From Acidimicrobiia bacterium (GTDB lineage: Bacteria; Actinomycetota; Acidimicrobiia; Spongiisociales; UBA11373), in contig JBBDWO010000030.1 in NCBI GenBank assembly GCA_040902765.1, positions 1,598 through 65,597 of the forward strand: a stretch of 64,000 bases of DNA. The letters are read 5' to 3'. The translations under genes were made by a program, and so were the position numbers. Below the pieces are notes generated by a model. The model saw only the letters and a list, made by a program, of their open reading frames with translations. It was not told the DNA's origin and did not search any database. Below, one piece after another: positions 10,332 to 37,721 of the stretch. The stretch's first letter is position 1. Each line of letters starts with the position of its first letter.

Positions 10332-10395
10332 TCAACGCTCAACGCTCAACGCTCAACGCCTTCACGCTCAACGCTCAACGCTCAACGCTCAACGC
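10332..10395. repeat. (TCAACGC)x4, an 8-nt variant CTTCACGC, then (TCAACGC)x4. The array begins 13 nt upstream of the GNAT start codon.
   Basis: Read directly from the sequence. Confidence 0.9.
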
Positions 10396-10428
10396 CAGAC
10401 TCGTCGAGTACTGCGTTCAGCGTGAAGT

Positions 10429-10535
10429 GTTGAGCGTCTTCTCCTGCGTTGAGCGTTAGGCGTTGAGCGTCTTCTCTGGCGTTGAGCGTTTTCTCCTGCG
10501 TTGAGTGTCTTCTCCTGCGTTGAGCGTTCTTGTCG
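10429..10535. repeat. 19-bp tandem repeat GTTGAGCGTCTTCTCCTGC, about 6 copies (one truncated to 14 nt), in inverted orientation to the upstream TCAACGC array and ending 14 nt before the Nudix start
   Basis: Units at 10429-10447, 10462-10480, 10481-10499, 10500-10518, with variant units between and after. Confidence 0.85.
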
Positions 10536-10548
10536 TATCGTCCTCCCC

Positions 10549-11091
10549 ATGACCGACCTGTGGGCCCCCCTCGCTTCGCTGCCGTCGGTGGCGAGTCCGT
10601 CAGGGGTGCGGGCTGCCGTCCTCGTGCCGATCTATGAGGACGACGGGCGGTTGCGGGTCATCATGACGCAACGGCCTGAGGAAATGCGCAGCCATCCGGG
10701 CGATGTCGTGTTCCCCGGTGGGATGATCGAACCAGGTGACGCCGACCCGATCGCTTGCGCCATCAGGGAGGCTTCCGAGGAGGTGGGACTCCCGGCCCGC
10801 AACGTCATCGAGATCCTGGGCGGTCTCAGCCCGGTGAACACCCGGTCGGTGACGATGAAGATCGTCCCCGTGGTCGCCCGGGTGGAACGCCCCGCCGAAC
10901 TGGTGCCGCAGCCCGACGAAGTCGCCGCCATCTTCGAGCCGAGCATCGACGAGCTGCTCGACGACGATGCCTGGCGCACCACCGACTGGGGCGGTCGCAC
11001 CATGTGGTTCTACGAATTCCCCAACGCGGTGCTGTGGGGAGCCACCGCGTTCATGGTGCGAGACCTGTTGGAGTACTTCAGGAACGCGTAG
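10549..11091 (+). CDS. Nudix hydrolase (CoA pyrophosphatase-like)
   Basis: Nudix box GGMIEPGDADPIACAIREASEEVGL. The UPF0035/NudL-like context motif LVPI...DG.L.VIMTQR is present. I chose ATG 10549 because the ORF-table start at 10501 lies inside the 19-bp repeat. Confidence 0.65.
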   Translation: MTDLWAPLASLPSVASPSGVRAAVLVPIYEDDGRLRVIMTQRPEEMRSHPGDVVFPGGMIEPGDADPIACAIREASEEVGLPARNVIEILGGLSPVNTRSVTMKIVPVVARVERPAELVPQPDEVAAIFEPSIDELLDDDAWRTTDWGGRTMWFYEFPNAVLWGATAFMVRDLLEYFRNA

Positions 11092-11180
11092 TAACGCTCA
11101 ACGCAAGAGAAGACGCTCAACGCCTAACGCTCAACGCCAGATCTGGCGAGTCCTGCGTTGAGCGTTGAGCGTTGAGCGTC
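11092..11180. repeat. TCAACGC-family hairpin element with left units TAACGC, TCAACGC, ...ACGCTCAACGC, CTAACGC, TCAACGC, the loop AGATCTGGCGAGTCCT, and right units (GCGTTGA)x3
   Basis: Read from the sequence. It lies between the convergent Nudix and arsC 3' ends and starts at the Nudix TAG stop. Confidence 0.85.
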
Positions 11181-11186
11181 GGCCCC

Positions 11187-11594
11187 TTAACGGAGCGCGT
11201 CGAACTCCTTCAACAACGCTTTCACACGCTCTTTGATCTCATCCCTGAGCGGGCGGATGTCCTCGAGGGGTAGGCCCGAGGGGTCGTCCAGTTCCCAGTC
11301 GCGGTAGACGACGCCGGGGAAGTAGGGACACTCGTCTCCGCAGCCCATGGTGACCACGACGTCGGCGTCGCCGATGACGTCGTCGGTCCACTTCGCTGGC
11401 TTCGTCTCCGACATGTCGATGCCGACCTCGAGCATGGCGGCAACCGCACTGGGATTGACATGGGCGCCGGGATCGGACCCACCGGAGAACACCTCTACCC
11501 GGTCGCCGCCCAACTCCCGAGCGAACGCCGCAGCCATCTGCGATCGCCCTGCGTTGTGGACGCAAAGGAAGACGATGCGGGGCGTGGCGGTCAC
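11187..11594 (-). CDS. arsC: arsenate reductase / low-molecular-weight protein-tyrosine-phosphatase family (thioredoxin-coupled ArsC type)
   Basis: The CVHNAGRS P-loop (Cx5R), the downstream Cys pair GCGDECP and a length of 135 aa. Confidence 0.65.
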   Translation of the reverse strand: MTATPRIVFLCVHNAGRSQMAAAFARELGGDRVEVFSGGSDPGAHVNPSAVAAMLEVGIDMSETKPAKWTDDVIGDADVVVTMGCGDECPYFPGVVYRDWELDDPSGLPLEDIRPLRDEIKERVKALLKEFDALR

Positions 11595-11617
11595 AGGCGC
11601 GATTGTCCCACGCGCGA

Positions 11618-11680
11618 GAACGCTTAACGCTCAACGCTCAACGCTCAACGCAAGAGAGGGTGAGTCTGGCGTTGAGCGCT
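11618..11680. repeat. TCAACGC-family element with GAACGC, TTAACGC and (TCAACGC)x3, then AAGAGAGGGTGAGTCTGG, then GCGTTGAGCG. GGGTGAG...CTCACCC flanks the right arm.
   Basis: Read from the sequence. Confidence 0.85.
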
Positions 11681-11733
11681 CACCCCCTAAGCGTCTGCAA
11701 GGCAACGATGACCGTCTCACTAGGTTCTCCTTG

Positions 11734-12438
11734 CTACGCGCCCCACCACGCCACGAACAGCGGTGCCAGCGCGATGGCCGGCAGCATGTTCGCCACCCTG
11801 ACCTGCTTCAGGTCGAGGAGGCGCAGCGCAATGCCGAGCAGCAATATCCCGCCGGCCGTTGCCAGGGCATCGATCATCGGGTCGGTGAGGAGTCCGTCGA
11901 GCGCTCCTCCGGCGACGGCCAGGCCGCCCTGGACGACGGCGACGGTCATCGCCGCCAGTGCCACCCCCCACCCGTAGACGGCGGCAAAGGCGATCGAGGC
12001 GAATCCGTCGAGCGCCGCCTTCACCAGCAGCATCTCGTGATCTCCGAGCCCGTCGCGGATGGACCCGACGACGGTGAGCGGTCCCACGCAGAACACCAGA
12101 GAGGCGAGGACGAAGCCTTCGCTGAACCTCCGCTGGCCGCCTCCGGAGAGGTCTTCGGACGAGACTCGTGATTGGAGGAACCGGCCGAAGCGCTCCAATC
12201 CCTGTTCGATCCGCAGGCTCTCTCCCAGGAGCACACCGACGAGGACGGCGGCGATGACGAGCGGGAATTCGCCGGTGGCCATCGTCTCGCGAATCCCGAG
12301 TGCGGCGGTGATGAGGCCGAGCGTTGCCATCAGGGTGGTGCGGAACCGCTCGGGGAAGCGACTGCCGGCGACGGCTCCTATGGCACCCCCGACGAGCACG
12401 GTCACGACGTTCACCAGGGTGCCGATCGGGAGGCTCAT
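11734..12438 (-). CDS. DUF554-family integral membrane protein (YqgA-like)
   Basis: About 234 aa and polytopic hydrophobic. ATG 12438 overlaps the stop of the upstream gene (ATGA). The longer 414-aa ORF-table entry is a frame-read-through artefact. Confidence 0.45.
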   Translation of the reverse strand: MSLPIGTLVNVVTVLVGGAIGAVAGSRFPERFRTTLMATLGLITAALGIRETMATGEFPLVIAAVLVGVLLGESLRIEQGLERFGRFLQSRVSSEDLSGGGQRRFSEGFVLASLVFCVGPLTVVGSIRDGLGDHEMLLVKAALDGFASIAFAAVYGWGVALAAMTVAVVQGGLAVAGGALDGLLTDPMIDALATAGGILLLGIALRLLDLKQVRVANMLPAIALAPLFVAWWGA

Positions 12439-13517
12439 CGTCGTCCCTCCAGGGCTGCCGTCGCCTCGAAGCGCACCCGGAAGTCCTCGTCGACGGCGGC
12501 GAGGATCATGGTCTCCTCGCTCGGGCCGATGCCGAGGGCGGCGATCGCCTTTACCGCACGCCAGCGGGTCCACGCGTCGGTGTCGAAGACGGCTTCCTCG
12601 AAGAGGGGTCGGAACGCATCGTCCTCCCGGTCGGCTGCGGCATCCACGGCGGCTCGTCGCACCATCCGGGTCGGATCCCGGTAGCCGGTGACGATGGCCG
12701 CGGTGGCCACCGCCTCGTCCCCGGACAGCGCCAGGGTGACGACGGCTGCCCGGCGTCGCCTCGGCTCCGACGAGGCGAGCGCCTCGACCAGCGTCTGCTG
12801 TTGCGGCTGGTCGTCGGGGTCCATCAGGTGCAGATCCTCGGCGCGGATGGGCGTCGTGTGACGACGTCCCGCCTCCTCGAGCAGCTGTTCCCGGGTGCGA
12901 ACCGGGGGAGTGCCTGCGTCGCCGATCCAGAACAGCTCGGTGACCCGTTCGAGGACGTCGTCGAGTCGCTCCTCCCAATCGGCCGACGGGCGCAGCCCGA
13001 CGGTGACGAAGTCACCGGCCACCATCACGTCCGACACGTCCTCGTCGTCCATGAGGGCGCGGACCCGCTCGTCCTCGACGTCCTCGCCTCGGCGATGCCA
13101 GACACCCGGGGCGGGGGTCCCGCCGACGGTGAATTTGATCTTGCGGGGATGCGGCGTCTGCTCGGGTCGGACCGGCCCGGAGAACGCCCGTTGGAACAGG
13201 GTCGTCATGCTGGGTGGCTCCCCGGTCACGGCCAGGGTGTAGCGGCCGTCGCGGATCCCGTGCTCCAGCGTGAGGCCATGGCCGAGGTCGTGGACCCACC
13301 ATCCTTCGGAGAGGTGCGGAGTCACCAGGTTGCTGAGCCGCTCGGCGTCGTTCTCATCCCACGGAGCGTGTGAGAAGAACCGCTTGAGTGCTGACTTCAG
13401 CGCCACCACCCCCTCGAACGGCAGCTGGACGGCCACCGTCTCCGTGAGGTGCGCCGATGCGGCGGCGACCAATTCCAGTTCGGCGACGGCGGCGCGGGGC
13501 TCGGTTCCGGCGGACAC
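12435..13517 (-). CDS. virulence-factor/Nfu_N-like domain protein with C-terminal HEAT-like repeats (CvfC-like)
   Basis: The N-terminal ...ALKRFFSHAPWDENDAERL...KIKFTV region resembles Nfu_N / virulence-factor domains. The C-terminal AAVDAA...WRAVKAIAALG... resembles PBS-lyase HEAT repeats. This rests on my recall of these families and no search was run. Confidence 0.35.
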   Translation of the reverse strand: MSAGTEPRAAVAELELVAAASAHLTETVAVQLPFEGVVALKSALKRFFSHAPWDENDAERLSNLVTPHLSEGWWVHDLGHGLTLEHGIRDGRYTLAVTGEPPSMTTLFQRAFSGPVRPEQTPHPRKIKFTVGGTPAPGVWHRRGEDVEDERVRALMDDEDVSDVMVAGDFVTVGLRPSADWEERLDDVLERVTELFWIGDAGTPPVRTREQLLEEAGRRHTTPIRAEDLHLMDPDDQPQQQTLVEALASSEPRRRRAAVVTLALSGDEAVATAAIVTGYRDPTRMVRRAAVDAAADREDDAFRPLFEEAVFDTDAWTRWRAVKAIAALGIGPSEETMILAAVDEDFRVRFEATAALEGRR

Positions 13518-13584
13518 TCGGGCATGTTGGCACGATCACGGATGGCAGTCGGCCGCGAAGCGGCCGGTCTACCCTGCGGCCCTC

Positions 13585-14559
13585 ATGGAACGCAAGACCG
13601 CTTTTTCCGGCCTGCAGCCCACGGGCAACATCCACGTGGGCAACTACCTGGGTGCCCTGCGCAACTGGGTGCGGCTTCAGGAGGAGTACGACTGCATCTA
13701 TTGCATCGTCGATCTTCACGCCATCACACAGGACTACGACACCGGCGCATTCGCCAAGGAGCGCCAGGGGGCCGCCAAGGTCCTGATCGCCTGTGGCGTC
13801 GACCCCGAGAGGTCGCTGTTCTACTACCAGAGCCAGGTGCCCCAGCACACCGAGCTGGCGTGGATCCTCGGCACGATCACCGGAACCGGTCAGCTCGCTC
13901 GCATGACCCAGTACAAGGACAAGGCCGACGACTCGGGCTCCAATCTTGGCCTGTTTGCCTACCCGGTCCTCATGGCCGCCGACATCCTCCTCTACAGGGC
14001 GCACGCGGTGCCGGTCGGAGAGGATCAGAAGCAGCACCTGGAGTTGACCCGCGACCTCGCCGAGCGCTTCAACCATCGCTTTGGTGACGAGTTCCCGATC
14101 CCCGAGCCGATCATCCCCGAGGTCGGGGCTCGGATCATGTCGCTCCAGGATCCCACCCAGAAGATGTCGAAGTCGGACCCGGACGAGTCGAGCCGCATCC
14201 TCGTGCTCGACAGCCCGGACGAGGTCCGCGCCAAGCTGAAGCGGGCCGTCACCGACTCGGAGACCGAGGTCCGGTTGGACTGGGAGAACAAGCCCGGCGT
14301 GTCCAATCTGCTCGAGATCATGTCGCTGTTCACCGGCAGGCCGATCGCCGACCTCGAGACCGAGTTCGGGAGGGGCGGATACGGCAAGTTCAAGGAGGCG
14401 GTTGCCGAGGCGGTGATCGACGGGCTGGCGCCGATTCGCGCTCGACACCGGGAACTCGCCGACGCCGACGTCGATCGGATCATGCAGCGCGGTGCTCTTG
14501 ACGCTCGCACCCGAGCCGAAGGCTTCCAACAGCGGGTGCGCAAGCTCGTCGGCCTCTGA
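13585..14559 (+). CDS. trpS: tryptophan--tRNA ligase
   Basis: The class I signatures FSGLQPTGNIHVGNYLGA (HIGH) and KMSKS. I chose ATG 13585. The ORF-table start at 13270 adds a non-homologous leader that overlaps the divergent gene. Confidence 0.9.
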   Translation: MERKTAFSGLQPTGNIHVGNYLGALRNWVRLQEEYDCIYCIVDLHAITQDYDTGAFAKERQGAAKVLIACGVDPERSLFYYQSQVPQHTELAWILGTITGTGQLARMTQYKDKADDSGSNLGLFAYPVLMAADILLYRAHAVPVGEDQKQHLELTRDLAERFNHRFGDEFPIPEPIIPEVGARIMSLQDPTQKMSKSDPDESSRILVLDSPDEVRAKLKRAVTDSETEVRLDWENKPGVSNLLEIMSLFTGRPIADLETEFGRGGYGKFKEAVAEAVIDGLAPIRARHRELADADVDRIMQRGALDARTRAEGFQQRVRKLVGL

Positions 14560-14677
14560 CCGGTAACCAGCCTCCAGACACCGGCGGCGGTAGTGCGGGT
14601 TCTGGAGCGCCAGGGCACGGTCTGCAGGAGGCACACATCGCCGGCGTCACTACATTCCCTGGAGAAGGCGAGGTGCC

Positions 14678-16141
14678 ATGGTGGATTGGCGAGACGAGGA
14701 TCCCGGTCTCCCGATCAAGCTCGGCCCCGTCTCCAACGGCGAGTTCCTACCGGAGCCGCTCTCACCGACCGTCACCGAGGCTCTGCGCGCGGCGCGGGCG
14801 CAGTGTGATCGGGCTGCCGACAGGCTCAGCATCGACCGTCGCGAGTTTCTCAAGATGGCAGCTGCTTCCGCGATCACCCTCTACTTCCTCGACCGTTTCA
14901 CGTCCAGAGCCGAGGCGCATCCGGGCGGTCGCTTCGTCATACCCCGGGATGCCCTCTGGGAGCCTGCGGCTGCTGAGGTCCGGCTCTCCGGTGACGAATT
15001 CATCATGGACGTGCAGGGCCACCTGTTGGAGTACGACCTGAATCCGGCGACCAGGGGCCGCCGCTTTTGGGGAAGCCAGTTTCCACAGGTGAACTGTGGG
15101 GACGACGACCCCAGGGCCTGTTTCTCGATGACGCACTTCATGGAGGAGATGTTCCTGCGGTCCGACACGTCGATGGCGGTGGTGTCCGCCTTGCCCATCC
15201 ACCCGGAAGGGAGCCCGCTGCCGATCGAGGTGATGGACGAGACCCGCCGGGTCGCCCTCGGGCTCAGCCGTGACGACCGGATCCTGCTCCATGCCCAGGC
15301 ACTACCCCAGGTGGGCAACATCGACGCGACGCTCGAGGAGATGGAGGCGACGGCCGCTCGATATCCGGTCGCCGGCTGGAAGACCTTCACTCACTTTCGT
15401 GATCCGCAGACCGGCAACCGGTTCTGGCTCGACGACCACGAGTCCGGGATGCCGTTCGTCGGGCGATCCTTCATCGAGAAGTCGCTGGAGTTGGGGATCA
15501 ACATCATCTGTGTCCACAAGGGCTTGTCGGGTGGAGACCGCTACGCCTCGCCGGTGGACATCGGTGCCGTCGCTCGCGACTACCCGGACATGAACTTCGT
15601 CGTCTACCACTGCGGGTTCGAGGTGTCGGTCTCAGAGGGCCCGTATACCGAGTCGACGCGTGATGTGGGGGTCAACCGGTTCATCTCCTCGCTCGTCGAC
15701 AACGGGATCGGGCCGGGTAGCAACGTGTATGGCGAGTTGGGCTCGACCTGGTGGTACCTGATGCGGACCCCGACGCAGGCCGCGCACGTTCTCGGGAAGC
15801 TGCTCACCTACCTGGGCGAGGACCGAATCCTTTGGGGCACCGACTCGATCTTCTATGGCTCGCCCCAGGATCAGATCGAGGCGATGCGGGCTTTCGAGAT
15901 CACGCCGTCCTTCCGCGATCGGTACGAGTACCCGAAGCTGACGCCCTACGTGAAACGCAAGATCTTCGGTCTCAGTGCCGCTGATCTGTATGGGGTCGAG
16001 CCGGAGCGCCGGTGGTGGTCGTTCGACCGAGATGACATTCGCGACCTGCGGCGGACCTTCCCCGACGGGAACAAGCCATGGGGGCCAGCGACCATCGAGG
16101 AATTCCGGCGCTTTCACGAGTATCACCAGGGGTGGGCCTAA
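14678..16141 (+). CDS. amidohydrolase-2 (TIM-barrel metal-dependent hydrolase) family protein with a twin-arginine signal peptide
   Basis: DRREFLKMAAASAITLY is a Tat motif. Amidohydrolase-like H/D motifs are present (VHKG..., HCGF, WGTDS). GGAGAAGG lies upstream of ATG 14678. Confidence 0.55.
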   Translation: MVDWRDEDPGLPIKLGPVSNGEFLPEPLSPTVTEALRAARAQCDRAADRLSIDRREFLKMAAASAITLYFLDRFTSRAEAHPGGRFVIPRDALWEPAAAEVRLSGDEFIMDVQGHLLEYDLNPATRGRRFWGSQFPQVNCGDDDPRACFSMTHFMEEMFLRSDTSMAVVSALPIHPEGSPLPIEVMDETRRVALGLSRDDRILLHAQALPQVGNIDATLEEMEATAARYPVAGWKTFTHFRDPQTGNRFWLDDHESGMPFVGRSFIEKSLELGINIICVHKGLSGGDRYASPVDIGAVARDYPDMNFVVYHCGFEVSVSEGPYTESTRDVGVNRFISSLVDNGIGPGSNVYGELGSTWWYLMRTPTQAAHVLGKLLTYLGEDRILWGTDSIFYGSPQDQIEAMRAFEITPSFRDRYEYPKLTPYVKRKIFGLSAADLYGVEPERRWWSFDRDDIRDLRRTFPDGNKPWGPATIEEFRRFHEYHQGWA

Positions 16142-16213
16142 CGGCATGCCGTCGCTGGTCTCGTTCCTGGAGCCCAGGGCCTCGGGCCCGTGGCCCGGAG
16201 TAACCTCTGCGCC

Positions 16214-17371
16214 ATGGACGTCGAGATCGGGATCGGGAAGGTGGGTCGTCGGGCATGGGGCCTCGACGACATTGCCATCGTTCCCAGCCGCCGCACCCGG
16301 GACCCCGATGACGTCGACATCTCGTGGGAGGTGGACGCCTACACCTTCGACCTCCCGTTCTTGGGTTCGGCGATGGATTCGGCGATCAGCCCGGCGACCG
16401 CCGTGCAGATCGGTCGGCTCGGCGGTGTGGGGGTCCTCAACCTCGAAGGGTTGTGGACCCGGTACGCCGATCCCGAACCGCTCCTGGATGAGATCGCGGC
16501 GTTGCCCGCCGACAAGGCGACCCGCCGGATGCAGGAGATCTACCTGGAGCCGATCGATCCCGACCTGATCACCGAGCGCATCGCCGAGATGAAGAAGAGC
16601 GGCGTGGTCACCGCGGCAAGCCTCACGCCGCAGCGTGTCGCCGAGTACGCCCCGACGACGGTGAAAGCCGGGTTGGACCTGCTCGTCATCCAGGGAACCG
16701 TGGTGTCCGCGGAGCACGTGTCCACCCGCAGCGAGCCCCTCAACCTCAAGGAGTTCATCGCCGACTTCGACCTCCCTGTGATCGTGGGCGGCTGCGCCTC
16801 GTTCTCCACCGCCTTGCACCTGATGCGGACCGGGGCCGTGGGGGTTTTGGTGGGGGTGGGACCGGGGGCGGCGTGCACCACCCGTGGCGTCCTCGGCGTC
16901 GGGGTTCCACAGGCGACAGCCATCGCCGATGCCGCAGGAGCCAGGATTCGCTACCTCGATGAGACCGGTCGGTATGTCCATGTCATCGCCGACGGCGGTA
17001 TGCGCACCGGTGGGGACATCGCCAAGGCGATCGCCTGCGGAGCCGATGCGGTGATGCTGGGCTCGCCGATCGCTGCCGCCACCGAAGCCCCGGGGCGGGG
17101 TTTCCACTGGGGGATGGCGGCCTTCCATCCCACCCTGCCGAGAGGCACCCGCGTCGAGGTGGGCGACCTGGGCACCCTCGAGGAGATCCTGGTGGGGCCC
17201 GCCCACGAGAATGACGGCCGCCGGAACCTGTTCGGTGGGCTCAGGGTGTCGATGGCCACCACCGGCTATGCCGATCTCAAGGAGTTCCAGAAGGCCGAGG
17301 TGATGGTCGCCCCGGCCCTCCGGACCGAGGGGAAGAGCCTCCAGCGTGATCAGCGCGTCGGCATGGGTTGA
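16214..17371 (+). CDS. IMP dehydrogenase-family protein lacking CBS domains (GuaB3-like)
   Basis: An IMPDH/GMP-reductase barrel ([23 protein letters not shown]) with no CBS pair. It sits immediately upstream of guaA, as in the actinobacterial guaB2-guaB3-guaA order. Confidence 0.6.
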
Positions 17372-18914: not shown

Positions 18915-18915
18915 G

Positions 18916-18946
18916 CGCGATACGCGAATCGCGAATCGCGAATTGC
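18916..18946. repeat. (CGCGAAT)x3.5 array starting 1 nt after the guaA TAG stop, followed by the GC palindrome GCCGCGGC
   Basis: Read from the sequence. Confidence 0.85.
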
Positions 18947-19021
18947 GGTGCCGCGGCGGCTTGTCTCAAGGCGCCGCGTGCCACGCCGATACCCTGACGA
19001 GTGGTAGTCCGAGGTAATCCC

Positions 19022-21037: not shown

Positions 21038-21045
21038 CGCTGGTC

Positions 21046-21141
21046 CGCGATTCGCGATTCGCGATTCGCAAGACGCACCGTGAGCCTTCCAGCGCGGCTC
21101 TGGCGTCCTGTCTGACGAATAGCGAATTGCGAATTGCGAAT
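21046..21141. repeat. inverted heptamer arrays with (CGCGATT)x3 at 21046-21066, a 44-nt spacer, and GACGAAT, AGCGAAT, (TGCGAAT)x2 at 21114-21141
   Basis: Read from the sequence. It lies between the cheA stop and the pcrA start. Confidence 0.85.
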
Positions 21142-21198
21142 AGCGCTCAAATCACAGCCCGGTGATTCGAGCCATACCCCCGCCCTAAACTCTTTCTC

Positions 21199-24032: not shown

Positions 24033-24047
24033 GGCTCCGCCTCAGCC
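24027..24047 (+). terminator. GC hairpin GGCTGAGG-CTCCG-CCTCAGCC overlapping the mgtC stop
   Basis: A perfect 8-bp stem. Confidence 0.45.
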
Positions 24048-24108
24048 GTTACCCGTTTCCCGTTTCCCGGCAGGCGACAGGTAACCGGCAACCGGTAACG
24101 GGTAACCT
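24048..24108. repeat. inverted heptamer arrays with GTTACCC and (GTTTCCC)x2, a 12-nt spacer, then GTAACCG, GCAACCG, GTAACGG, GTAACCT. The element ends 10 nt before the ATG of the B12-domain gene.
   Basis: Read from the sequence. Confidence 0.85.
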
Positions 24109-25663: not shown

Positions 25664-26541
25664 TGGCGATCTTCGTCGACGCCAGCACGCGACTCGTCGT
25701 CCAGGGGCTCACCGGCAGCCAGGGCCGATTCCATGGCTTCCGCAACCGGGACTCGGGGACGCGCCTGGTCGCCGGGGTCACTCCTGGCAAGGGCGGGATG
25801 GATCTCGACGGCGTCCCGATCTTCGACACGGTGTCCCAGGCGGTCGAAGCGACCGGTGCCAACACGTCGATGGTGTTCGTGCCTCCCGCCTTCGCCGCCG
25901 ACGGCATCCTCGAGGCGGCCGACGCCGACGGAATCAACCTGATCGTCGCCATCACCGAGGGCATCCCCGCCCACGACGAGGCCCGGGTGTACAACTACAT
26001 TCGCCAGACCAGCCGGACACCGCTCATCGGACCCAACTGCCCGGGACTCATCTCGCCGGGGAAGGCCAATGTGGGGATCACCCCCCACGAGATCACGCTG
26101 CCGGGCTCGGTCGGCGTGGTGTCGCGCTCGGGGACCCTCACCTACCAGGCGGTCCACGAACTCACGGTGCGCGGCATCGGACAGAGCACCTGTGTTGGCA
26201 TCGGTGGCGATCCGGTTCCGGGCACGTCGTTCGTCGACGTGCTGGAGCGATTCGAGGAGGACTCCGAGACCGAGGTGATCGTGATGATCGGCGAGATCGG
26301 CGGCAGCGCCGAGGAGGAAGCAGCGCTGTTCATCCGTGACCACGTCAGCAAGCCCGTGGTCGGCTACATCGCCGGGGTCACCGCACCCGCGGGCAAGAAG
26401 ATGGGCCACGCCGGAGCGATCATCTCGGGTTCCTCCGGCACCGCCGCCGCCAAGCAAGAGGCGCTGCGCGCCGCCGGAGTCACCGTCGTCGACGACCCCA
26501 GCGCCATAGGCGAAGCAGTAGGAATAGCGATTGGCAATTAG
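25663..26541 (+). CDS. sucD: succinate--CoA ligase alpha subunit
   Basis: The CoA-binding region and the catalytic-His region (GHAGAIISG). Its ATG overlaps the sucC TGA. The last six codons (GIAIGN) and the TAG stop are encoded by heptamer units. Confidence 0.9.
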
Positions 26542-26615
26542 CAATTAGCAATTGGCAAGAGTCGGAGTGCCGGGTTCTTGGACTCTTGCTGGTAGCTGGT
26601 AGCTGGTGGCTGGCG
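26523..26615. repeat. AATAGCG, ATTGGCA, (ATTAGCA)x2, ATTGGCA overlapping the sucD 3' end; then a 9-bp hairpin GCAAGAGTC-(16 nt)-GACTCTTGC; then (GCTGGTA)x2, GCTGGTG, GCTGGCG
   Basis: Read from the sequence. Confidence 0.85.
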
Positions 26616-27303: not shown

Positions 27304-27346
27304 GGGGTCCTCGGGGCTCGACCGGCGACACCGGTAGCCTCATCTC

Positions 27347-28291: not shown

Positions 28292-28321
28292 TCCCCTTGT
28301 CCACGACTGAGGAGCCCCGCT

Positions 28322-29527: not shown

Positions 29528-29561
29528 GCGCCATCGAGGGTTGCGGGGCCCCGGGCCCGGG

Positions 29562-29636
29562 GCTGCCGGCTGCCAGCCGTCAGCCATCTGCAGCACACGG
29601 CGGGTCGAGCGAATTGCGAATTGCGAATTGCGGTCT
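29562..29636. repeat. GC palindromes (CGGGGCCCCG, CCCGGG); then (GGCTGCC)x2, AGCCGTC, AGCCATC; then (GCGAATT)x3 plus GCGGTCT, ending 6 nt before the mdh RBS
   Basis: Read from the sequence. Confidence 0.8.
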
Positions 29637-29654
29637 GCCCGGAAGGAGCGCGTC

Positions 29655-30593: not shown

Positions 30594-30614
30594 GATCGCC
30601 TGCGCCCCGCGGAC

Positions 30615-31577: not shown

Positions 31578-31605
31578 GGGGGCATAAATGGCCCCATGCC
31601 CGGTA

Positions 31606-31638
31606 TTGATGGCTTTTTGTGCGCGAATCGCCTACAAT
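31606..31638 (+). promoter_or_regulatory. candidate hup promoter with TACAAT (-10-like) at 31633-31638 and TTGATG upstream at 31606-31611. The spacing is long (21 nt).
   Basis: Hexamers read from the sequence. The spacing is not ideal, so this is a weak call. Confidence 0.25.
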
Positions 31639-31672
31639 TACACGGTTGTCATTCCCTCAAGGAGGAGTGGAC

Positions 31673-31957
31673 ATGAACAAGAAGGAGCTCGGCGACGCCG
31701 TCGCCGCAGCACTCGATGGCCAGAAGACCATGGGCGGCGCCGCCGTCGATGCCGTCTTCGCTGCCGTGGCCGGTGCCCTCGCCAAGGGGGACAAGGTCTC
31801 GATCGCAGGATTCGGATCCTTCGAGGTCCGCCAGCGTGCGGCGCGTATGGGACGCAATCCGCGTACCGGACAGCCTGTGCACATCAAGGCGGCGAAGGCG
31901 CCTGCCTTCAAGGCGGCCAAGGCGCTGAAGGAAGCGGTCAACGCGTTCAACCCGTAA
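31673..31957 (+). CDS. hup: DNA-binding protein HU
   Basis: MNKKELGDAVA...GFGSFEVRQRAARMGRNPRTGQPVHIKA is an HU-family protein. AAGGAGG lies 8 nt upstream of ATG 31673. Confidence 0.85.
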   Translation: MNKKELGDAVAAALDGQKTMGGAAVDAVFAAVAGALAKGDKVSIAGFGSFEVRQRAARMGRNPRTGQPVHIKAAKAPAFKAAKALKEAVNAFNP

Positions 31958-31974
31958 CCCACGGTCGACCAAGG

Positions 31975-32016
31975 AAATGTGTGAGGGGCGCCCAACCGGG
32001 CGCCCCTCACACATTT
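31975..32016. terminator. strong bidirectional terminator candidate with a perfect 19-bp stem AAATGTGTGAGGGGCGCCC / GGGCGCCCCTCACACATTT and a 4-nt loop
   Basis: Read from the sequence. It lies between the convergent hup and SCP2 genes. Confidence 0.6.
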
Positions 32017-32017
32017 C

Positions 32018-32115
32018 AGCTATTAGCCATTAGCTATTGGCTTTTAGCCAGAACCGGGCGAAGGCCTCGCGAGCGTCTGGCCAATTGCTAATAGCCAATA
32101 GCCAATAGCCAATAG
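32018..32115. repeat. inverted heptamer arrays with AGCTATT, AGCCATT, AGCTATT, GGCTTTT, a 29-nt spacer, then CCAATTG, CTAATAG, (CCAATAG)x3
   Basis: Read from the sequence. The spacer contains CGCGAG and GCGTCTGG, which are also present in the 58814-58848 spacer. Confidence 0.85.
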
Positions 32116-32119
32116 CTCT

Positions 32120-32506
32120 CTAGTACTCCACGTCCACCGTGGATGCGGCATTGGCGAAGTCGGTCATGATCCGCTGATGCTGGAGCAGCTTGCCCATGTT
32201 CCCCGTGATCTTGATCTTGCCGGTCATGAACGCCATCTGCGTGTTGAGTTCCCCCTTGCTGATGGCGACGGCCGTCTGGTAGGTGCTACTGATGGTGGCA
32301 TCGGCGGAGTCGCTGCCACCGGAAGCGACTGCGACCGACCCATTGTCGAGGGCCAGCGTGTATGCCAACAGGCGATCTTCTGGTGGGTCGGTCACCTCGA
32401 ACGAGAGGGTGAGGTCGACGCCACCGATGGCGGAGGTGAATCCCTCATGCCCCGACAGTGCGGTCTCGAGGGCCTCGAGCCACTCATCGGTCAGAAACTT
32501 GGCCAC
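32120..32506 (-). CDS. SCP2 (sterol carrier protein-2-like) domain protein
   Basis: The SCP2 fold motif ...MTGKIKITGNMGKLLQH. The start GTG at 32506 has AAGGAG 8 nt upstream. The longer ORF-table version would overlap the dapA-like gene by 59 nt. Confidence 0.55.
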   Translation of the reverse strand: MAKFLTDEWLEALETALSGHEGFTSAIGGVDLTLSFEVTDPPEDRLLAYTLALDNGSVAVASGGSDSADATISSTYQTAVAISKGELNTQMAFMTGKIKITGNMGKLLQHQRIMTDFANAASTVDVEY

Positions 32507-32537
32507 GTGCTGAACTCCTTCGTCGCTCACCGGGAGA

Positions 32538-33425
32538 TTAGTGGGCGCTGCGAGCCGCTTCCCCCAGTGCCCGAGAAGCTTCATCGAGCGCAGCATCGAT
32601 GAGCGCCGTGGTCTTGTCGTCGGGGGACTCCAGGGGGCGACGCGGCGATCCGCATCGCAAGCCCGCCCGCGTCGCCGCGTACTTGACCGCGCCGACGCCG
32701 TGTCGTTCGACGGCTGCGGATACCGCCGTCAAGACGGCCTGTAGAGGGGTCTCCTCGCCCGTGAGAGCGAGGGCCACGACCGTCGCGGCCAGTTCGGGGG
32801 CATAGTTGGCGCTCGCCGTGATGGCGCCGTGGGCGCCGGCGGCGACGGCCGGCCATGCGATCGCCGACGATCCGACGAAGACGGTCAGTGAGGTGGCGAC
32901 GAGCGCCCGGGCCCGGTCCAGGTCGCCGCTGGAGTCCTTGATGCCGACCACGTTGGGGTGCTCCGCCAGTCGGGTCGCGGAGTCGAGGGCGAGGTCGTAG
33001 GCGGTCACGCGGGGGACCGAGTAGAGGAACACGGGGAGCGGCGATGATGTAGCGACATCCTCGTAGTACCGCTCCACCATCGCCGGTTGATGGCGGACGA
33101 GGGTGGTCGGCGTGGTGACGAGCACCGCATCGGCGTCGGTGTCCGACACTTCGGCGATGAGCTCCATCGCCGATCGGAGGGACTCGGCCACGATCCCCAC
33201 CAGCACGAAGGCGTCCGGGGCGACTTCCCGGGTCGCCCGCGCCAGGTGGGCGCGTTCACCGGGCTCCAGGTAGGGACTCTCTCCGTTCGAGCCCCCGATG
33301 ACGAACCCCTCGACGCCCCGCTCCGCGAGTAGGGACACGTTGTGCCGGTGCGCGTCGAGATCCAGTTCGCCCGCGTCGTCGAAGGGGCTGACGATGGCGG
33401 GCATGAGCCAGGGTGGCGTTCGCAT
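32538..33425 (-). CDS. DapA family lyase (4-hydroxy-tetrahydrodipicolinate synthase-like)
   Basis: IVSPFDDAGELD...GFVIGGSNGE...VGIKDSSGD is the DapA/NAL-family TIM-barrel pattern. The start, ATG 33425 or 33404, is uncertain. Confidence 0.6.
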   Translation of the reverse strand: MRTPPWLMPAIVSPFDDAGELDLDAHRHNVSLLAERGVEGFVIGGSNGESPYLEPGERAHLARATREVAPDAFVLVGIVAESLRSAMELIAEVSDTDADAVLVTTPTTLVRHQPAMVERYYEDVATSSPLPVFLYSVPRVTAYDLALDSATRLAEHPNVVGIKDSSGDLDRARALVATSLTVFVGSSAIAWPAVAAGAHGAITASANYAPELAATVVALALTGEETPLQAVLTAVSAAVERHGVGAVKYAATRAGLRCGSPRRPLESPDDKTTALIDAALDEASRALGEAARSAH

Positions 33426-33443
33426 GGGCGGAGGCTATCGCGG

Positions 33444-33470
33444 CGAGCGAAGGCTGGCGCCTTCGCTCGC
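33444..33470. promoter_or_regulatory. perfect 12-bp inverted repeat GCGAGCGAAGGC-TGG-GCCTTCGCTCGC, 19 nt upstream of the dapA-like start
   Basis: Read from the sequence. It is a candidate operator or leader hairpin. Confidence 0.35.
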
Positions 33471-33473
33471 GGA

Positions 33474-33562
33474 GGGCAGAAGGCAGAGGGCGGATGGAGT
33501 TCGCTGTCTGCTGTCTGCTATCTGCTATCTGAGGCTCTGCCCTCTGCCGTCCGCCGTCTCCT
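33474..33562. repeat. nested heptamer arrays with GGGCAGA, AGGCAGA, GGGCGGA; a central (CGCTGTC/TGCTGTC/TGCTATC)x4; and reverse-complement units CTGCCCT, CTGCCGT, CCGCCGT
   Basis: Read from the sequence. It lies in the divergent dapA-like / sdhC region. Confidence 0.8.
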
Positions 33563-33574
33563 CGGCTCCCGGTC

Positions 33575-34333
33575 TTGGCCCCACGGCCTGCAATCCGCGA
33601 TACTCCCTTTGTGACCGCCGCTGACACCAAGCCGCGATTTCAGCCGCCGTGGCTCATACGCTTCTATCGCTCGGCGGTCGTCAAGAAGTGGGCGATGGCC
33701 CTCTCAGGCATAGTGCTCATCGCCTATGTGATCGCCCACCTGTACGGCAACCTCAAGATGTACATGAGCGCCGAGCAGGTGAACCACTACGCCGAGGCGC
33801 TGCGCGACCTCGGTGGCGACCTGTTCCCGCGGACCAGCGTGCTCTGGGCGATGCGGCTGGGCCTTCTCGCCGCACTCGTCCTTCACGTCCATGCCGCCTA
33901 CTCGCTGACCTATACCAACTGGAAGGCGCGCGGCGGGCGGTATCACGAGCGTGACTACGCCGTCGCCAACTATGCCTCCCGCACCATGCGGTGGACCGGC
34001 ATCATCGTGCTCCTGTTCGTCGCCTTCCATCTCGCCGACCTCACCTGGGGCACCCAGCCCGCGGCGACTGCCGAATTCACCCGCGGCGAGGTCTACGACA
34101 ACGTCATCCGCTCGCTCCAGCGCCCCGCCGTCGCAGGCATCTACGTCGTCGCCAACCTGGCACTGGCATTCCACCTGTACCACGGGGTGTGGAGCCTCTT
34201 CCAGAGCATCGGGTGGAGCCACCCCACCTTCAACCGCTGGCGCCGGTACCTCGCCTATGCCGTCACCGGTGTGGTGACCGCGGGCAATCTTTCGTTCCCG
34301 ATAGCCGTCCAGACCGGACTGCTGAGTCTGTGA
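33575..34333 (+). CDS. sdhC: succinate dehydrogenase cytochrome b subunit (b558 / SdhC type)
   Basis: Five TM helices with conserved His (IAHLYGN, HVHAAY, HLADLTW, HLYHG). The start may be GTG 33611. Confidence 0.7.
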
Positions 34334-34340
34334 GGCCGTC

Positions 34341-36257
34341 ATGAGGCTGGATGCCAGGATCCCCGGAGGACCGATCGAGGCCAAGTGGGACGACCACCGG
34401 TTGGCCATCCCCCTGGTGTCGCCGGCGAACCGCAAGCGGTTCGACGTGATCGTGGTGGGGACTGGACTCGCCGGAGCGGCCGCGGCGGCGACGATGGGCG
34501 AGCTGGGCTATCGGGTCAAGGCGTTCACCTTCCACGACAGCCCCCGCAGGGCGCACAGCGTCGCCGCCCAGGGTGGGATCAACGCCGCCAAGAACTATCG
34601 AAACGACGGGGACAGCATCCGTCGCCTGTTCGCCGACACGATCAAGGGCGGCGACTACCGCTCCCGCGAGGCCAACGTGTTCAGGCTCGCCCAGGTGAGT
34701 ACCGAGATCATCGACCAGGCGACCGCTCAGGGCGTGCCGTTTGCCAGGGAGTACGGAGGACTCCTTGCCAACCGATCGTTCGGTGGCGTGCAGGTGTCGC
34801 GCACGTTCTACGCTCGGGGTCAGACCGGGCAGCAGCTACTTCTCGGGGCCTATCAGGCGCTCGCCAGACAGGTCACACAGGGCACGGTGACTGTGTACAC
34901 CCGGTCGGAGATGCTGGATGTCGTGGTGGCTGATGGGCGGGCTGTGGGGATCGTGGTTCGCGACCTGGTCACCGGCGAGATCACCTCTCACTCGGCGCAC
35001 GCCGTAGTCCTCGCCACCGGCGGCTACTCGAACGCCTACTTCCTGTCGACCAACGCCAAGGCAAGCAACGTGACCGCCATATGGCGCGCCCACCGCAAGG
35101 GGGCTCTGTTCGCCAACCCGTGCTTCACCCAGATCCATCCCACCTGTATCCCGGCTTGTGATGAGTTCCAGTCGAAGCTGACGCTGATGTCCGAGTCCCT
35201 GCGCAACGACGGTCGGATCTGGGTCCCCACCGACATCGGTGACGGTCGGTCCGCCGGAGACGTCCCCGCCGGCAAACGCGACTACTTCCTCGAGCGCCGC
35301 TACCCGGCTTTCGGCAACCTGGTGCCGCGCGACGTCGCGTCGCGAGCCGCCAAGGCAGTCGTCGACGAGGGGCGGGGCATCGGTGCCCTCCAGAACGGCG
35401 TGTACCTCGACTTCGCCGACGCTATCGCCACACTCGGGCGCGAGGTCATGACCGAGCGGTACGGGAACCTCTTCGAGATGTATGAGCGAATCACCGGTGA
35501 GGACCCCTACTCGGTGCCGATGCGCATCTATCCGGCGCCGCATTACACGATGGGCGGTCTCTGGGTCGACTACGACCTGATGACGACGATCCCCGGGCTC
35601 TACGCCATCGGCGAGGGGAATTTTTCGGATCACGGAGCCAACCGACTCGGCGCCTCGGCCTTGATGCAGGGGCTCGCCGACGGATACTTCATCCTGCCCA
35701 ACACGATCGCCGCCTACCTGTCGGGTCGCCTCGGGGAGGCGTCGGAGTCGCTCGACCACCCGGCGTTCGCCGAGGCCGAGACCGGGGTCCGTGAGCGGAC
35801 CGCCCGGCTATTGGCCACCAATGGTTCCCGCACCGTCGACTGGTTCCATCGTGAGCTCGGCAAGATCGTGTGGGACCACTGCGGCATGGCCCGCGACGCA
35901 GTTGGTTTGGAGAAGGCGATCGCCGAGATCCCGGCCCTCCGCGAGGAGTTCCACAGTGACGTTCGTGTGCTCGGCGACGACGCCTCGATCAATCAGTCGC
36001 TCGAGAAGGCGGGCAGGGTGGCCGACTTCTTCGAGCTGGCTGAGCTCATGTGCCGCGATGCCCTGCACCGCGAAGAGTCGTGCGGCGGGCACTTCCGGGT
36101 CGAGCACCAGTCGGACGATGGCGAAGCCAGGCGGGACGACGAGAACTTTGCCTTCGTGTCCGCCTGGGGATTCGAGGGGGTCGGTGCCGAGCCGTCGCTG
36201 GTGAAGGAGCCGCTGTCGTTTGAGAACGTCGAGTTGAAGACGAGGAGCTACACCTGA
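34341..36257 (+). CDS. sdhA: succinate dehydrogenase flavoprotein subunit
   Basis: [19 protein letters not shown]-binding motif and [14 protein letters not shown] flavinylation-site motif, with a full length of 638 aa. Confidence 0.9.
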
Positions 36258-37021
36258 TGGACCTCACGCTGCGCGTCTGGCGCCAGGAAGCTGCCGGCAA
36301 GACAGGCAGGTTCGAGGAATACCGGGCGAGCGAGATCAGCCCGGATGCCTCGTTCCTCGAGATGCTCGACGTGGTCAACGACCGTCTCACGCTGGAGGGC
36401 GAGGAACCGATCGCCTTCGAACACGACTGTCGCGAAGGGATCTGTGGCTCCTGTGGCGTCATGATCAACGGCAAACCGCATGGCTCCGAGCGAGGCACGG
36501 CGACCTGCCAGCTCCACATGCGCCACTTCAGCGACGGTGATCTCATCGTGGTCGAGCCATGGCGTGCGTCCGGCTTTCCGGTGCTGCGCGACCTGGTGGT
36601 CGATCGGAGCGCCTTCGATCGGATCGTGGAGGCGGGAGGCTTCATCAGCGTCGACACGGGTAGTGCTCCAGAAGCCAACCTGATCCAGATCCCCAAGGAG
36701 GCGGCCGAGGCCGCCATGGACGCCGCCGCCTGCATCGGCTGCGGGGCGTGTGTCGCCGCCTGCCCGAACAGTGCGGCCCAGCTGTTCACCGCGGCGAAGA
36801 TCTCCCATCTCAACCTCCTGCCCCAGGGTCAGCCGGAGCGGTGGTCCCGCGTCGAGGCCATGGTGGATACGATGGAACAGTTCTTCGGGTCCTGCACCAG
36901 CTACGGCGAGTGTGAGGTGGCGTGCCCGAAGTCGATCTCTCTCGACTTCATCGCCCTGATGAACCGGGATTACGTCCGGTCGAAGTGGAAGAACCGTCGG
37001 TTGACGGGGCAGAAGAATTAG
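36257..37021 (+). CDS. sdhB: succinate dehydrogenase iron-sulfur subunit
   Basis: Cysteine clusters for 2Fe-2S ([10 protein letters not shown]), 4Fe-4S ([12 protein letters not shown]) and 3Fe-4S (CPKSIS). The TAG stop is the first unit of an AGTAGCG array. Confidence 0.9.
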
Positions 37022-37214
37022 CGAGTAGCGAGAGAACGCTCAACGCTTAACGCTCAACGCCAGAGTTCGTCGGTCTTGCGTTGAGCGTTAAGCGTCATTC
37101 CAGCTACCAGCTACCGATTGATCAGTGGCCAGTGGCGAGTAGGACGCTCAACGCTCAACGCTCAACGCCAGAGGTTGTCGCGTCTTGCGTTGAGGCGTTA
37201 AGCGTTAAGCGTGA
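37019..37214. repeat. composite element containing (TTAGCGAG)(TAGCGAG); TCAACGC hairpin element copy 1 (37034-37096, loop AGAGTTCGTCGGTCTT); (CAGCTAC)x2 and (CAGTGGC)x2 arrays; and TCAACGC hairpin element copy 2 (37143-37214, loop AGAGGTTGTCGCGTCTT)
   Basis: Read from the sequence. Confidence 0.85.
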
Positions 37215-37244
37215 TTCCCACCTATCGAGGCCGCTTTCTCCCCA

Positions 37245-37300
37245 ATTCGCGCTTTCCGCGCGATTCCTGGTTGACTGCGCGCGCTCCGCGCGCAATACTC
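37245..37300 (+). promoter_or_regulatory. candidate whiB promoter/operator with two GC palindromes (AATTCGCGC-TTTCC-GCGCGATT and TGCGCGCG-CTC-CGCGCGCA) flanking a TTGACT -35-like hexamer (37272-37277), followed by an AT-rich stretch
   Basis: Read from the sequence. No clean -10 hexamer was found at 17-bp spacing. Confidence 0.3.
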
Positions 37301-37342
37301 ATGGGATTAATCACATCAATGTAATTCACGAGGTGAGGCCAC

Positions 37343-37624
37343 ATGCTGGATGATCTGCGGCAAGCCCTGTTGGGGACCGGGGACGATCTCGCCTGGCAGG
37401 ATCGGGCCAACTGCACCGGTGCCAACGCCGATCTGTTCTTCCCGGAGCGCGGTGCATCGACCCGCACCGCAAAAGCCATCTGTCGCGCCTGCGACGTTCG
37501 CGAGGAGTGCCTCGAGTTCGCCATTACGACCGGCGAGAAGTTCGGCATCTGGGGCGGCATGTCAGAGCGCGAACGCCGCAAGGTCCGTCGCGACCGCCAG
37601 ATAGCGGCGAGACGAGCTTCGTAG
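37343..37624 (+). CDS. whiB: WhiB-family (Wbl) Fe-S transcription regulator
   Basis: Four Cys (C-x..-CRAC..EC) and GIWGG. There is no C-terminal AT-hook, so it is not WhiB7-type. Confidence 0.85.
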   Translation: MLDDLRQALLGTGDDLAWQDRANCTGANADLFFPERGASTRTAKAICRACDVREECLEFAITTGEKFGIWGGMSERERRKVRRDRQIAARRAS

Positions 37625-37721
37625 CGGGTAGCCGGTAGCTGGGAGCTGCTCTTCACGCTCAACGCTTAACGCCCAACGCAGGACTTGACGACCTCTGGCG
37701 TTGAGCGTTGAGCGTTACACG
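37622..37721. repeat. TAGCGGG, TAGCCGG, TAGCTGG, GAGCTGC starting at the whiB TAG stop; then TCAACGC hairpin element copy 3 with TCTTCACGC, TCAACGC, TTAACGC, CCAACGC, the loop AGGACTTGACGACCTCT, and (GGCGTTGA)(GCGTTGA)GCGTTAC
   Basis: Read from the sequence. Confidence 0.85.

Follow-up and report, generated by a model that had tools for sequence, protein, structure and literature searches.

Heptanucleotide repeats occur in excess in prokaryotes, with the Actinobacteria among the richest groups, and this excess has been attributed to polymerase slippage, according to the summary given in PMC4679880. In cyanobacteria, the 7-bp arrays known as short tandemly repeated repetitive (STRR) sequences form hairpins between genes, for example between hupS and hupL, and a role in transcript stability or translational coupling has been suggested for them (PMC2670836). 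Here we analyze six hairpins with arms of tandem TCAACGC units in 64,000 nt of DNA from an Acidimicrobiia bacterium (Actinomycetota; GenBank assembly GCA_040902765.1, contig JBBDWO010000030.1, positions 1,598 to 65,597), a stretch that is referred to in its entirety as the window and that homologs of its SdhB and Nudix proteins assign to an uncultured Acidimicrobiia lineage. On balance, the six elements are probably one unit family of a genome-wide, STRR-like class of hypermutable heptanucleotide-repeat palindromes.

The analysis covers the 64-kb window and about 37 kb from close relatives. Two syntenic contigs were used for most comparisons: L205 (21 kb), which aligns with window positions 618-21318 at a nucleotide identity of 87-96% in the genes, and L207 (13.5 kb), which aligns with positions 37144-48695 at 88-91%. 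Further, more distant relatives are L206 (86% for Nudix), L122 (94% for SdhB, 1.7 kb) and L124 (87% for SdhB). Arrays in the window were detected with Tandem Repeats Finder and a periodicity scan of our own, 12 orthologous gaps were compared between the window and L205 and L207, and fold z-scores were computed against dinucleotide shuffles.

A window-wide class of heptanucleotide arrays

The window contains 32 arrays with a period of 7 nt and none with a period of 8-12 nt. They are built from at least ten unrelated units, including CGCGATT, AGCTATT/GCCAATA, GCAATTA/TGGTAGC, CGAGTAG and GCTACCG as well as GGTAACG, AGTTGCC, GCTGTCT, GGCAGAG and CCGGTAG. Intergenic DNA makes up 7% of the window and holds 92% of the array bases (1054/1142), and at least one array is present in 21 of the 31 intergenic gaps of 40 nt or more. 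Most arrays are arranged in inverted pairs, which fold into hairpins 70-130 nt in length; these are found in convergent, divergent and co-directional gaps alike, and many start 0-15 nt past a stop codon (Table 1). The original prediction had confined the element to six copies with TCAACGC arms; the same architecture, with other 7-nt units, fills most of the other gaps.

The hairpins also have a tip in common. The motif GC[CA]AGA-N4-45-TCT[GT]GC occurs nine times in the window (0.66 expected), in eight cases at a hairpin tip, and these tips belong to four unit families. Relatives have it at their hairpin tips, too, and CAAGAG/CTCTTG can itself form short heptamer runs there. The AGA...TCT border of the loop, which had been taken as a hallmark of the TCAACGC family, is therefore not specific to it, as hairpins whose arms consist of unrelated units carry this border at their tips as well.

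Comparison of the 12 orthologous gaps revealed an array of the same family in four, an array of a different family in seven and no array in one. In L205, the gap of copy 1 has identical borders (GAAGTTAG on the left and TATCGTCC on the right) around (GCGAGTA)6 and GCGAATT units, and in L206 it holds GCAGCGT, CCGGTAG and CCCCTCG units. The gap of copy 2 contains CGAGTAG units and unrelated sequence in L205, so that for both copies relatives have arrays at the same positions but with unrelated spacers, an arrangement that the original prediction had considered irreconcilable with a single duplicated element. The gap of copy 3 measures 27 nt in L205 and is without an array. For copies 4 and 5, L207 has one orthologous hairpin only (L207 52-160), composed of (TTCACGC)10, the tip CAGAGAGTGATCGGTCTTG and GCGTTGA GCGTTAA, with the right flank GATTCCCAC as in copy 5; copy 4 is absent. 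The same gap holds (CGAGTAG)4 only in L122 and nothing in L124. Copy 6 is kept in L207 (598-681), where (TTCACGC)3 forms the left side and the middle of the tip is different. The orthologous tips of L207 and the window are about 68% identical, no better than the adjoining spacer. At the shorter sites in L205 and L122 that correspond to copies 3 and 4/5, divergence of the flanks prevents an empty site from being defined.

Replacement is also seen in the opposite direction. L205 has TCAACGC-family hairpins at 6907-7042 and 16946-17018, where the window has CGCGAAT-type arrays, and the tip of the latter (GCGTCTTGCGT) resembles those of copies 4 and 5. The site of the array past the guaA stop (18916-18948) holds a TTAACGC/GCGTGGA hairpin in L205, that of the arrays at 47575-47667 holds (CTCGCTA)14 in L207, and in L206 the orthologous gaps contain still different units. 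The hairpin at 21042-21146 is kept in L205 (19106-19210), with an identical left arm and a loop that is about 70% identical.

Signals close to the arrays are conserved in the same genomes. The terminator hairpin of groEL is conserved in three genomes whose arrays differ. Canonical GC-rich hairpins without heptamers adjoin arrays at 9590-9625, 31974-32017 and 18949-18990, and hairpins of this type (the one after groEL is kept in L205 and L206) look like real terminators. Upstream of groES (7524-7578) lie two operators for HrcA that resemble the controlling inverted repeat of chaperone expression (CIRCE), TGGCACTC-N9-GATTGCTAG and, at 7552-7578, TTGGCACTC-N9-GAGTGCTAG; both are kept in L205, whereas the heptamer region directly upstream is wholly different. 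The promoter-like site of whiB (TTGACT-17-AATACT, 37271-37299), the only one returned by a promoter scan, is kept in L122, L124 and L207. Its spacer is the GC palindrome GCGCGCGCTCCGCGCGC, with a second palindrome, AATTCGCGC...GCGCGATT, before it (37240-37300), and the conserved site may be bound by a regulator.

Genes before arrays end in TAG unusually often (stops at 11089, 18912, 21035, 37019, 37622, 47575, 60577 and 63636). The TAG is sometimes derived from the array itself (e.g., CGAGTAG or ATAGCTACC), and the final 2-24 nt of several genes are covered by arrays, which together suggests that arrays can invade gene ends and supply the stop codon. A second type of intergenic hairpin has no heptamers and consists of runs of C5-6 and G5-6, such as CCCTCCCCCGTAGGGGGAGG and TTCTCCCCCCTTCGGGGGGAGAA; it is found at 38717-38737 and 38846-38868 of the window and at 10655-10850 of L205.

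Anatomy of the six TCAACGC hairpins

Inspection of the sequence located all six predicted loci with TCAACGC arms (Table 1). Allowing one mismatch, TCAACGCTCAACGC has 18 matches in the window, each of them in one of the six loci, the expectation from dinucleotide shuffles being 0.04. Each of the six cores folds as a long stem-loop, with a minimum free energy of the RNA between -27 and -48 kcal/mol and z-scores from -3.6 to -9.2. The paired parts range from 58 to about 190 nt and the arms from 2 to 9 units, and the similarity between copies is confined to the short tip. When oriented by the tip, the six copies align as ...ACGC-A(A/G)GAC-N7-9-(C)TCTGG-CGTT..., with copies 1-5 pointing one way and copy 6 the opposite way. 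The six predicted loop strings exist, but their order along the sequence was wrong, and Table 1 pairs them with their actual positions.

The loops are related, as had been proposed. Their mean normalized similarity in the best orientation is 0.365, compared with 0.155 for shuffled loops; when the 4-nt ends are held fixed, shuffled loops reach 0.234 +/- 0.027, and none of 500 shuffles attains the observed value. The six copies are thus not independent products of slippage. The likeness is seen among copies 1, 4, 5 and 6, and copy 3, which forms the weakest hairpin (z -3.6) and has the most divergent loop, is an outlier in the comparison.

Copy 1 is longer than predicted: it does not end at 10450 but continues to 10527 as a tail of 19-nt units (10429-10527; GCGTTGAGCGTCTTCTCCT five times), which adds more GCGTTGA units, and the entire region 10320-10530 folds at -107.6 kcal/mol. 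The odd variant unit CTTCACGC is present in copies 1 and 6 as described, but it is not a unit of 8 nt: it corresponds to the heptamer TTCACGC, which dominates the TCAACGC family in relatives and has one extra C in copy 1. Irregular units are mirrored across the arms, CTTCACGC by GCGTGAAG in copy 1 and TTAACGC by GCGTTAA in copy 4, which indicates that one of the arms served as the template for its partner. The z-score of copy 4 is -6.6, and copy 2 has the most stable core fold (-48.3 kcal/mol, z -9.2).

Some copies are connected by local copying. Copies 4 and 5 form a local tandem duplication of about 108 nt that takes in the left flank (GCGAGTAG) as well as the right one (ATTCC). A 45-nt inverted repeat (10446-10490 and 11093-11137) with a 98% match is common to copies 1 and 2 and includes the non-heptamer sequence GCGTCTTCTCT. 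The left arm of copy 2 contains AAGAGAAGACGC, which is the 19-mer tail of copy 1 in inverse form. Of the proposal that a single element had been duplicated or transposed, the duplication is therefore borne out for these pairs, but the discrete element is not. The 45-nt repeat brackets the Nudix gene and could allow inversion of this gene by homologous recombination; in L205, directly oriented CGAGTAG arrays lie on both sides of the Nudix gene.

Table 1. Heptanucleotide hairpins and arrays of the window, with positions counted from its first nucleotide.
Feature	Position	Strand	Location and structure
Copy 1	10332-10527		between the divergent starts of GNAT (10318, -) and Nudix (10549, +); left arm 10332-10395 (four TCAACGC, C+TTCACGC, four TCAACGC), right arm 10413-10437
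Copy 1 loop	10396-10412		CAGACTCGTCGAGTACT
Copy 2	11092-11180		between the convergent stops of Nudix (11091) and LMWPc (11187); left arm 11092-11137, right arm 11155-11180
Copy 2 loop	11138-11154		CAGATCTGGCGAGTCCT
Copy 3	11618-11680		between LMWPc (-) and DUF554 (-); left arm 11618-11651, short right arm 11669-11679
Copy 3 loop	11652-11668		AAGAGAGGGTGAGTCTG
Copy 4	37034-37096		starts 13 nt past the sdhB stop, immediately after a CGAGTAG remnant; left arm 37035-37060, right arm 37078-37095
Copy 4 loop	37061-37077		CAGAGTTCGTCGGTCTT
Copy 5	37143-37214		upstream of the conserved whiB promoter; left arm 37143-37168, right arm 37187-37212
Copy 5 loop	37169-37186		CAGAGGTTGTCGCGTCTT
Copy 6	37650-37721		downstream of whiB, preceded by a direct GTAGCNG array (37621-37648); left arm 37651-37679 (C+TTCACGC, TCAACGC, TTAACGC, CCAACGC), right arm 37698-37718
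Copy 6 loop	37680-37697		AGGACTTGACGACCTCTG
CGCGATT / CGCGAAT hairpin	4661-4776		fills the UDG-TsaE gap; hairpin of the same family in L205 (4146-4256)
CGCGATT / GCGAATW hairpin	21042-21146		CheA-UvrD gap; tip GCAAGA...TCTGGC
Inverted-pair hairpin	24044-24106		folds as a hairpin
GCAATTA / TGGTAGC hairpin	26527-26615	+	tip GCAAGAGTC...GACTCTTGC
AGCTATT / GCCAATA hairpin	32018-32118		tip AGCCAGA...TCTGGCC; adjoins the canonical GC-rich hairpin at 31974-32017
GGCAGAG / CTCTGCC hairpin	33480-33565		loop is a (GCTGTCT)4 array; divergent DHDPS-sdhC gap
AGCTATT-type / GCCAATA hairpin	58769-58888		tip AGCCAGA...TCTGGCC, as at 32018-32118
TTCGCGA / GCGAATC hairpin	60579-60687		tip end GCAGGAC...CCTCTTGGC, like the tip of copy 6
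(GCTACCG)8, then (CGGTTGA)3	47575-47667		imperfectly complementary; convergent gap
Unpaired (CGCGAAT)3 array	18916-18948		directly past the guaA stop; without inverted partner
Other unpaired single arrays	7462-7487, 29607-29634, 63813-63851

The flanking genes were identified by Pfam as GNAT, NUDIX, LMWPc, SdhB and WhiB, in agreement with their earlier assignment. Like these, the other genes of the window are ordinary core genes: yjeF, alr, tsaEBD, groES/EL, guaA, uvrD, sucCD, folD, icd and mdh, as well as sdhCAB, whiB, pst and genes for a branched-chain amino-acid ABC transporter. Two regions of the window, 3118-4012 and 14552-16205, hold open reading frames (about 300 and 487 amino acids, respectively) that are absent from the otherwise collinear L205.

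Growth, replacement and origin of the hairpins

Slippage has left its signature within the arms, in the form of runs of identical variant units in relatives, such as TTCACGC x3 / CTCACGC x3 / TTCACGC x2, CTCGCTA x14 and TTCACGC x10. Orthologous arrays in L205, L207 and L122 differ in unit number and in their variant runs. The two arms can also diverge from each other, with (TTCACGC)10 opposite GCGTTGA/GCGTTAA in L207 and (TTAACGC)4 opposite (GCGTGGA)2 in L205, and the arms of a hairpin at L207 8172-8331 come from different unit families; pairing is thus not strictly kept.

These features are consistent with a process of four steps. Arrays would grow and shrink by slipped-strand mispairing, which favors units of 7 nt in many bacteria; the comparisons between relatives support this step. 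A direct array together with a small palindrome might then become a hairpin by fold-back (snap-back) or template-switch copying, as suggested by the structure of the hairpins, and irregular units would be mirrored into the opposite arm in doing so. Each arm would subsequently be homogenized by slippage on its own, with decay of complementarity, again in line with the comparisons, and blocks would now and then be copied to nearby gaps by duplication or gene conversion, to which the structure of the arrays points. If transcribed, the hairpins would be long stem-loops in 3' untranslated regions, intercistronic spacers or leaders, where they may impede exonucleases or ribosomes. We infer that the elements are tolerated, self-renewing repeat DNA in which no particular sequence is selected, and that effects of the RNA stem-loops would be incidental.

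Several points weigh against this interpretation. Slippage alone fails to explain why a few unit families and the CAGA/TCTG tip recur across loci and relatives, and the presence of the TCAACGC family at non-orthologous sites (L205 6907 and 16946) needs some copy-and-paste process. The fold-back step is one that we derive from the anatomy of the hairpins. As there is an array, irrespective of its sequence, at nearly every orthologous gap, the arrays could be under selection for a property independent of sequence, such as a hairpin or a spacer, instead of being neutral. Finally, the hairpin at 26527-26615 has 13 G-U pairs and folds at -45.3 kcal/mol on the sense (+) strand, compared with -21.4 kcal/mol on the antisense strand, which makes it the single case in the window that hints at selection on the RNA.

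A copy-and-paste process might be provided by a non-autonomous element similar to a miniature inverted-repeat transposable element (MITE) or to a REPIN, the hairpin formed by paired repetitive extragenic palindromic (REP) sequences. The tip and the first arm units would be moved by a REP-associated tyrosine transposase (RAYT), an IS200/IS605-type HUH enzyme or a similar enzyme, with growth of the heptamers being secondary. We regard this as unlikely, even though it would account for the relatedness of the loops beyond chance, for a family with a similar tip at non-orthologous sites of a relative, for differences in presence and absence among close relatives and for a tip motif common to several arm families. 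It would also fit the occurrence of TCAACGC-armed hairpins in Verrucomicrobiota and the tendency of hairpins to adjoin CGAGTAG remnants or TAG stops, a possible target preference. However, the elements have neither a fixed length nor fixed ends, and the discrete MITE of 60-90 nt that had been suggested does not agree with arms that vary freely in length and unit composition. No target-site duplication was detected, as no direct word of at least 5 nt is shared at any of the six borders (random pairs of 16-mers share such a word in 18% of cases). Orthologous replacement leaves identical outer borders and no recognizable empty site, copies 4/5 and 1/2 are accounted for by local duplication or inversion, and hairpins from metagenomes have the arms in common, not the tip. 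Neither a transposase or integrase was found among the approximately 58 housekeeping genes of the window nor a gene for a RAYT (Y1 HUH transposase) within it, which is hardly informative about the remainder of the genome. A related but more speculative scenario, to which we assign a low probability, is that a dedicated DNA-processing enzyme that recognizes the tip (GC-CAGA...TCTG-GC) seeds new hairpins in gaps, in place of resident arrays, and that the arms of these hairpins then grow in steps of 7 nt, with the system or the TCAACGC arm family being shared by horizontal transfer between two unrelated groups from soil, Acidimicrobiia and Udaeobacter-like Verrucomicrobiota. If the hairpins were mobile, they would represent a new type of extragenic palindrome system.

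The stability of the predicted stems raises the question of a function in RNA. The hairpins might be selected stem-loops in which the stem matters and the sequence is free, serving as terminators independent of a U-tract, as stabilizers of 3' ends or in intercistronic processing or insulation. The start of many of them 0-15 nt from a stop codon, the retention of some array, despite changes in sequence, in almost all orthologous gaps of three relatives and the G-U pairs that stabilize the 26527-26615 hairpin on the sense strand only are in favor of such a role. Roles of this kind have been proposed for REP elements and also for STRR hairpins, the latter in PMC2670836. On the other hand, no U-tract or T-run follows any of the six copies, the terminator scan found none at the hairpins, and canonical GC-rich hairpins are conserved alongside. 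A terminator would be meaningless at copy 1 or at the 33480 element, as both are situated between divergent gene starts. In relatives arms lose their complementarity, and unpaired arrays are common. There is no overall bias toward the sense strand, which folds better in 7 of 14 co-directional cases, with the antisense strand better in 4 and ties in 3, and the TCAACGC family has no trend. We regard selected stem-loops of this kind as likewise unlikely.

A structured non-coding or cis-regulatory RNA family with a functional, conserved loop is very improbable. The similarity of the loops of copies 1, 4, 5 and 6 and the strong predicted folds would be expected of it, and a covariance model built from the six copies retrieves all of them with a strand asymmetry of 14-24 bits. 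The same model recovers the two non-orthologous hairpins of L205, but no further copies in the window, and its matches to 78 TCAACGC hairpins from metagenomes involve the arms only (at most 61.6 bits, equal on both strands), which argues against a conserved RNA family beyond this clade. The similarity of the loops thus vanishes across genomes when these further copies are included, an outcome that the original prediction had named as grounds for its rejection. None of the 23 stem pairs covaries (RNAalifold, six oriented copies), in contrast to what the structured RNA motif of the original prediction would require, and Rfam 15 gave no match at gathering thresholds anywhere in the window. The orientation of the tip does not follow that of transcription, being antisense in copies 4 and 5 and sense in copies 3 and 6, the orthologous tips are as diverged as the spacer that adjoins them, copies 1-3 are missing in a relative of 94% identity, and the border of the loop is common to unrelated arm families.

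The attC sites of integrons have RYYYAAC as the consensus of the inverse core and GTTRRRY as that of the core. Read in the register GCTCAAC / GTTGAGC, the hairpins could be taken for attC-like or other tyrosine-recombinase sites: GCTCAAC, GCTTAAC, GCCTAAC and GCCCAAC fit RYYYAAC, and GTTGAGC, GTTAAGC and GTTAGGC fit GTTRRRY. The flanking genes, however, are syntenic housekeeping genes (sdhB, whiB, groEL, Nudix) and not cassettes, the window encodes no integrase, and the other unit families of the same architecture do not fit the consensus. Moreover, the tandem 7-nt spacing fails to reproduce that of the R-box and L-box, and we estimate a probability of about 15% that one family out of about 12 would match by chance. 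We regard the fit as coincidental; the genomic context rules out membership, and a recombination site is the least credible of the explanations considered. Pairs of DNA uptake sequences and heptad-binding proteins such as cold-shock proteins, both raised in PMC4679880, have no specific support.

Should the interpretation as slippage-driven repeat palindromes be correct, 7-nt slippage and fold-back copying would have packed two thirds of the gaps with long palindromes. These would be rebuilt over a sequence divergence of about 10%, with the promoters, operators and terminators only a few bases from them remaining fixed. This would provide a natural system in which to ask why 7 nt is favored and how genomes tolerate dense hairpin DNA. 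The repeats also appear to fragment short-read assemblies: an SdhB identical to that of the window is encoded only by a 984-nt Logan contig (L001, SRR27977660) that ends inside copy 4, and most close relatives sit on contigs of 1-2 kb. Genomes of this clade are under-assembled, since short-read assemblies appear to break at the heptamer repeats.

Relation to known repeat systems

The TCAACGC unit is not specific to this lineage, as tandem arrays of three units are present at 120 or more loci of many phyla; among the matches listed, 5 of 133 arrays have an inverted partner. The phyla and orders among those matches are Verrucomicrobiota, Bacteroidota, Burkholderiales, Acidobacteriota, Planctomycetota, Synergistota and Campylobacterota, and their arrays are mostly direct. 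Several of the metagenomic contigs with hairpins are from Udaeobacter- or Chthoniobacterales-like Verrucomicrobiota, and their tips often contain AATTCAGA; hairpins with such tips recur in Udaeobacter-like contigs from soil. A literature search of incomplete coverage did not find heptamer-armed hairpins in Actinomycetota, nor anything relevant for the exact repeat strings.

REP, REPIN and bacterial interspersed mosaic elements are, like the hairpins described here, abundant imperfect palindromes of intergenic regions that occur in gaps of all orientations, comprise several families, vary among strains and form stem-loops in mRNA. In contrast to the tandem 7-mers of variable number, REPs are non-tandem sequences of 20-40 nt with a conserved GTAG-type end and a cognate RAYT. 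Similarly, MITEs such as Correia and Nezha are short, non-coding, intergenic and multi-copy with terminal inverted repeats, but the hairpins of the window have no target-site duplication or fixed length, their arms are simple sequence and their interior is conserved only at the short tip. The BOX elements of Streptococcus pneumoniae are modular intergenic repeats in which the number of tandem modules varies and for which a strong secondary structure is predicted; their modules are 45-59 nt long and conserved genome-wide, whereas the modules here are 7 nt long and belong to many unrelated families.

More closely similar are the TAACTGA repeats of Beggiatoaceae, cyanobacteria and Bacteroidetes, an intergenic heptamer that, like TCAACGC, occurs in unrelated phyla, and for which close relatives have shorter gaps without repeats (PMC4679880). 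These repeats lie just upstream of start codons and are dominated by one unit, with 169 direct sets and a single indirect one (PMC4679880), in contrast to the many units and mostly inverted arrangement found here. The survey of heptanucleotide simple sequence repeats by Mrazek, Guo and Shah (2007), as summarized in PMC4679880, describes an over-representation of 7 nt, mostly in non-coding DNA and with the Actinobacteria rich in such repeats, in agreement with our observations; the arrays in that summary are direct, and inverted pairs, a common tip and dense filling of gaps fall outside its description.

The closest counterparts are the STRR sequences of heterocystous cyanobacteria, which have tandem 7-bp units, an intergenic location, several families per genome and hairpins such as that between hupS and hupL (PMC2670836). 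As the arrays described here are from Acidimicrobiia (Actinomycetota) and have other units, they are not STRRs in the strict sense; in addition, they are mostly inverted pairs around a common palindromic tip, occupy two thirds of the gaps and have a documented replacement of one family by another. The dominance of inverted pairs, the common tip motif and the near-saturated gaps with family replacement appear to add new detail to an already known kind of repeat.

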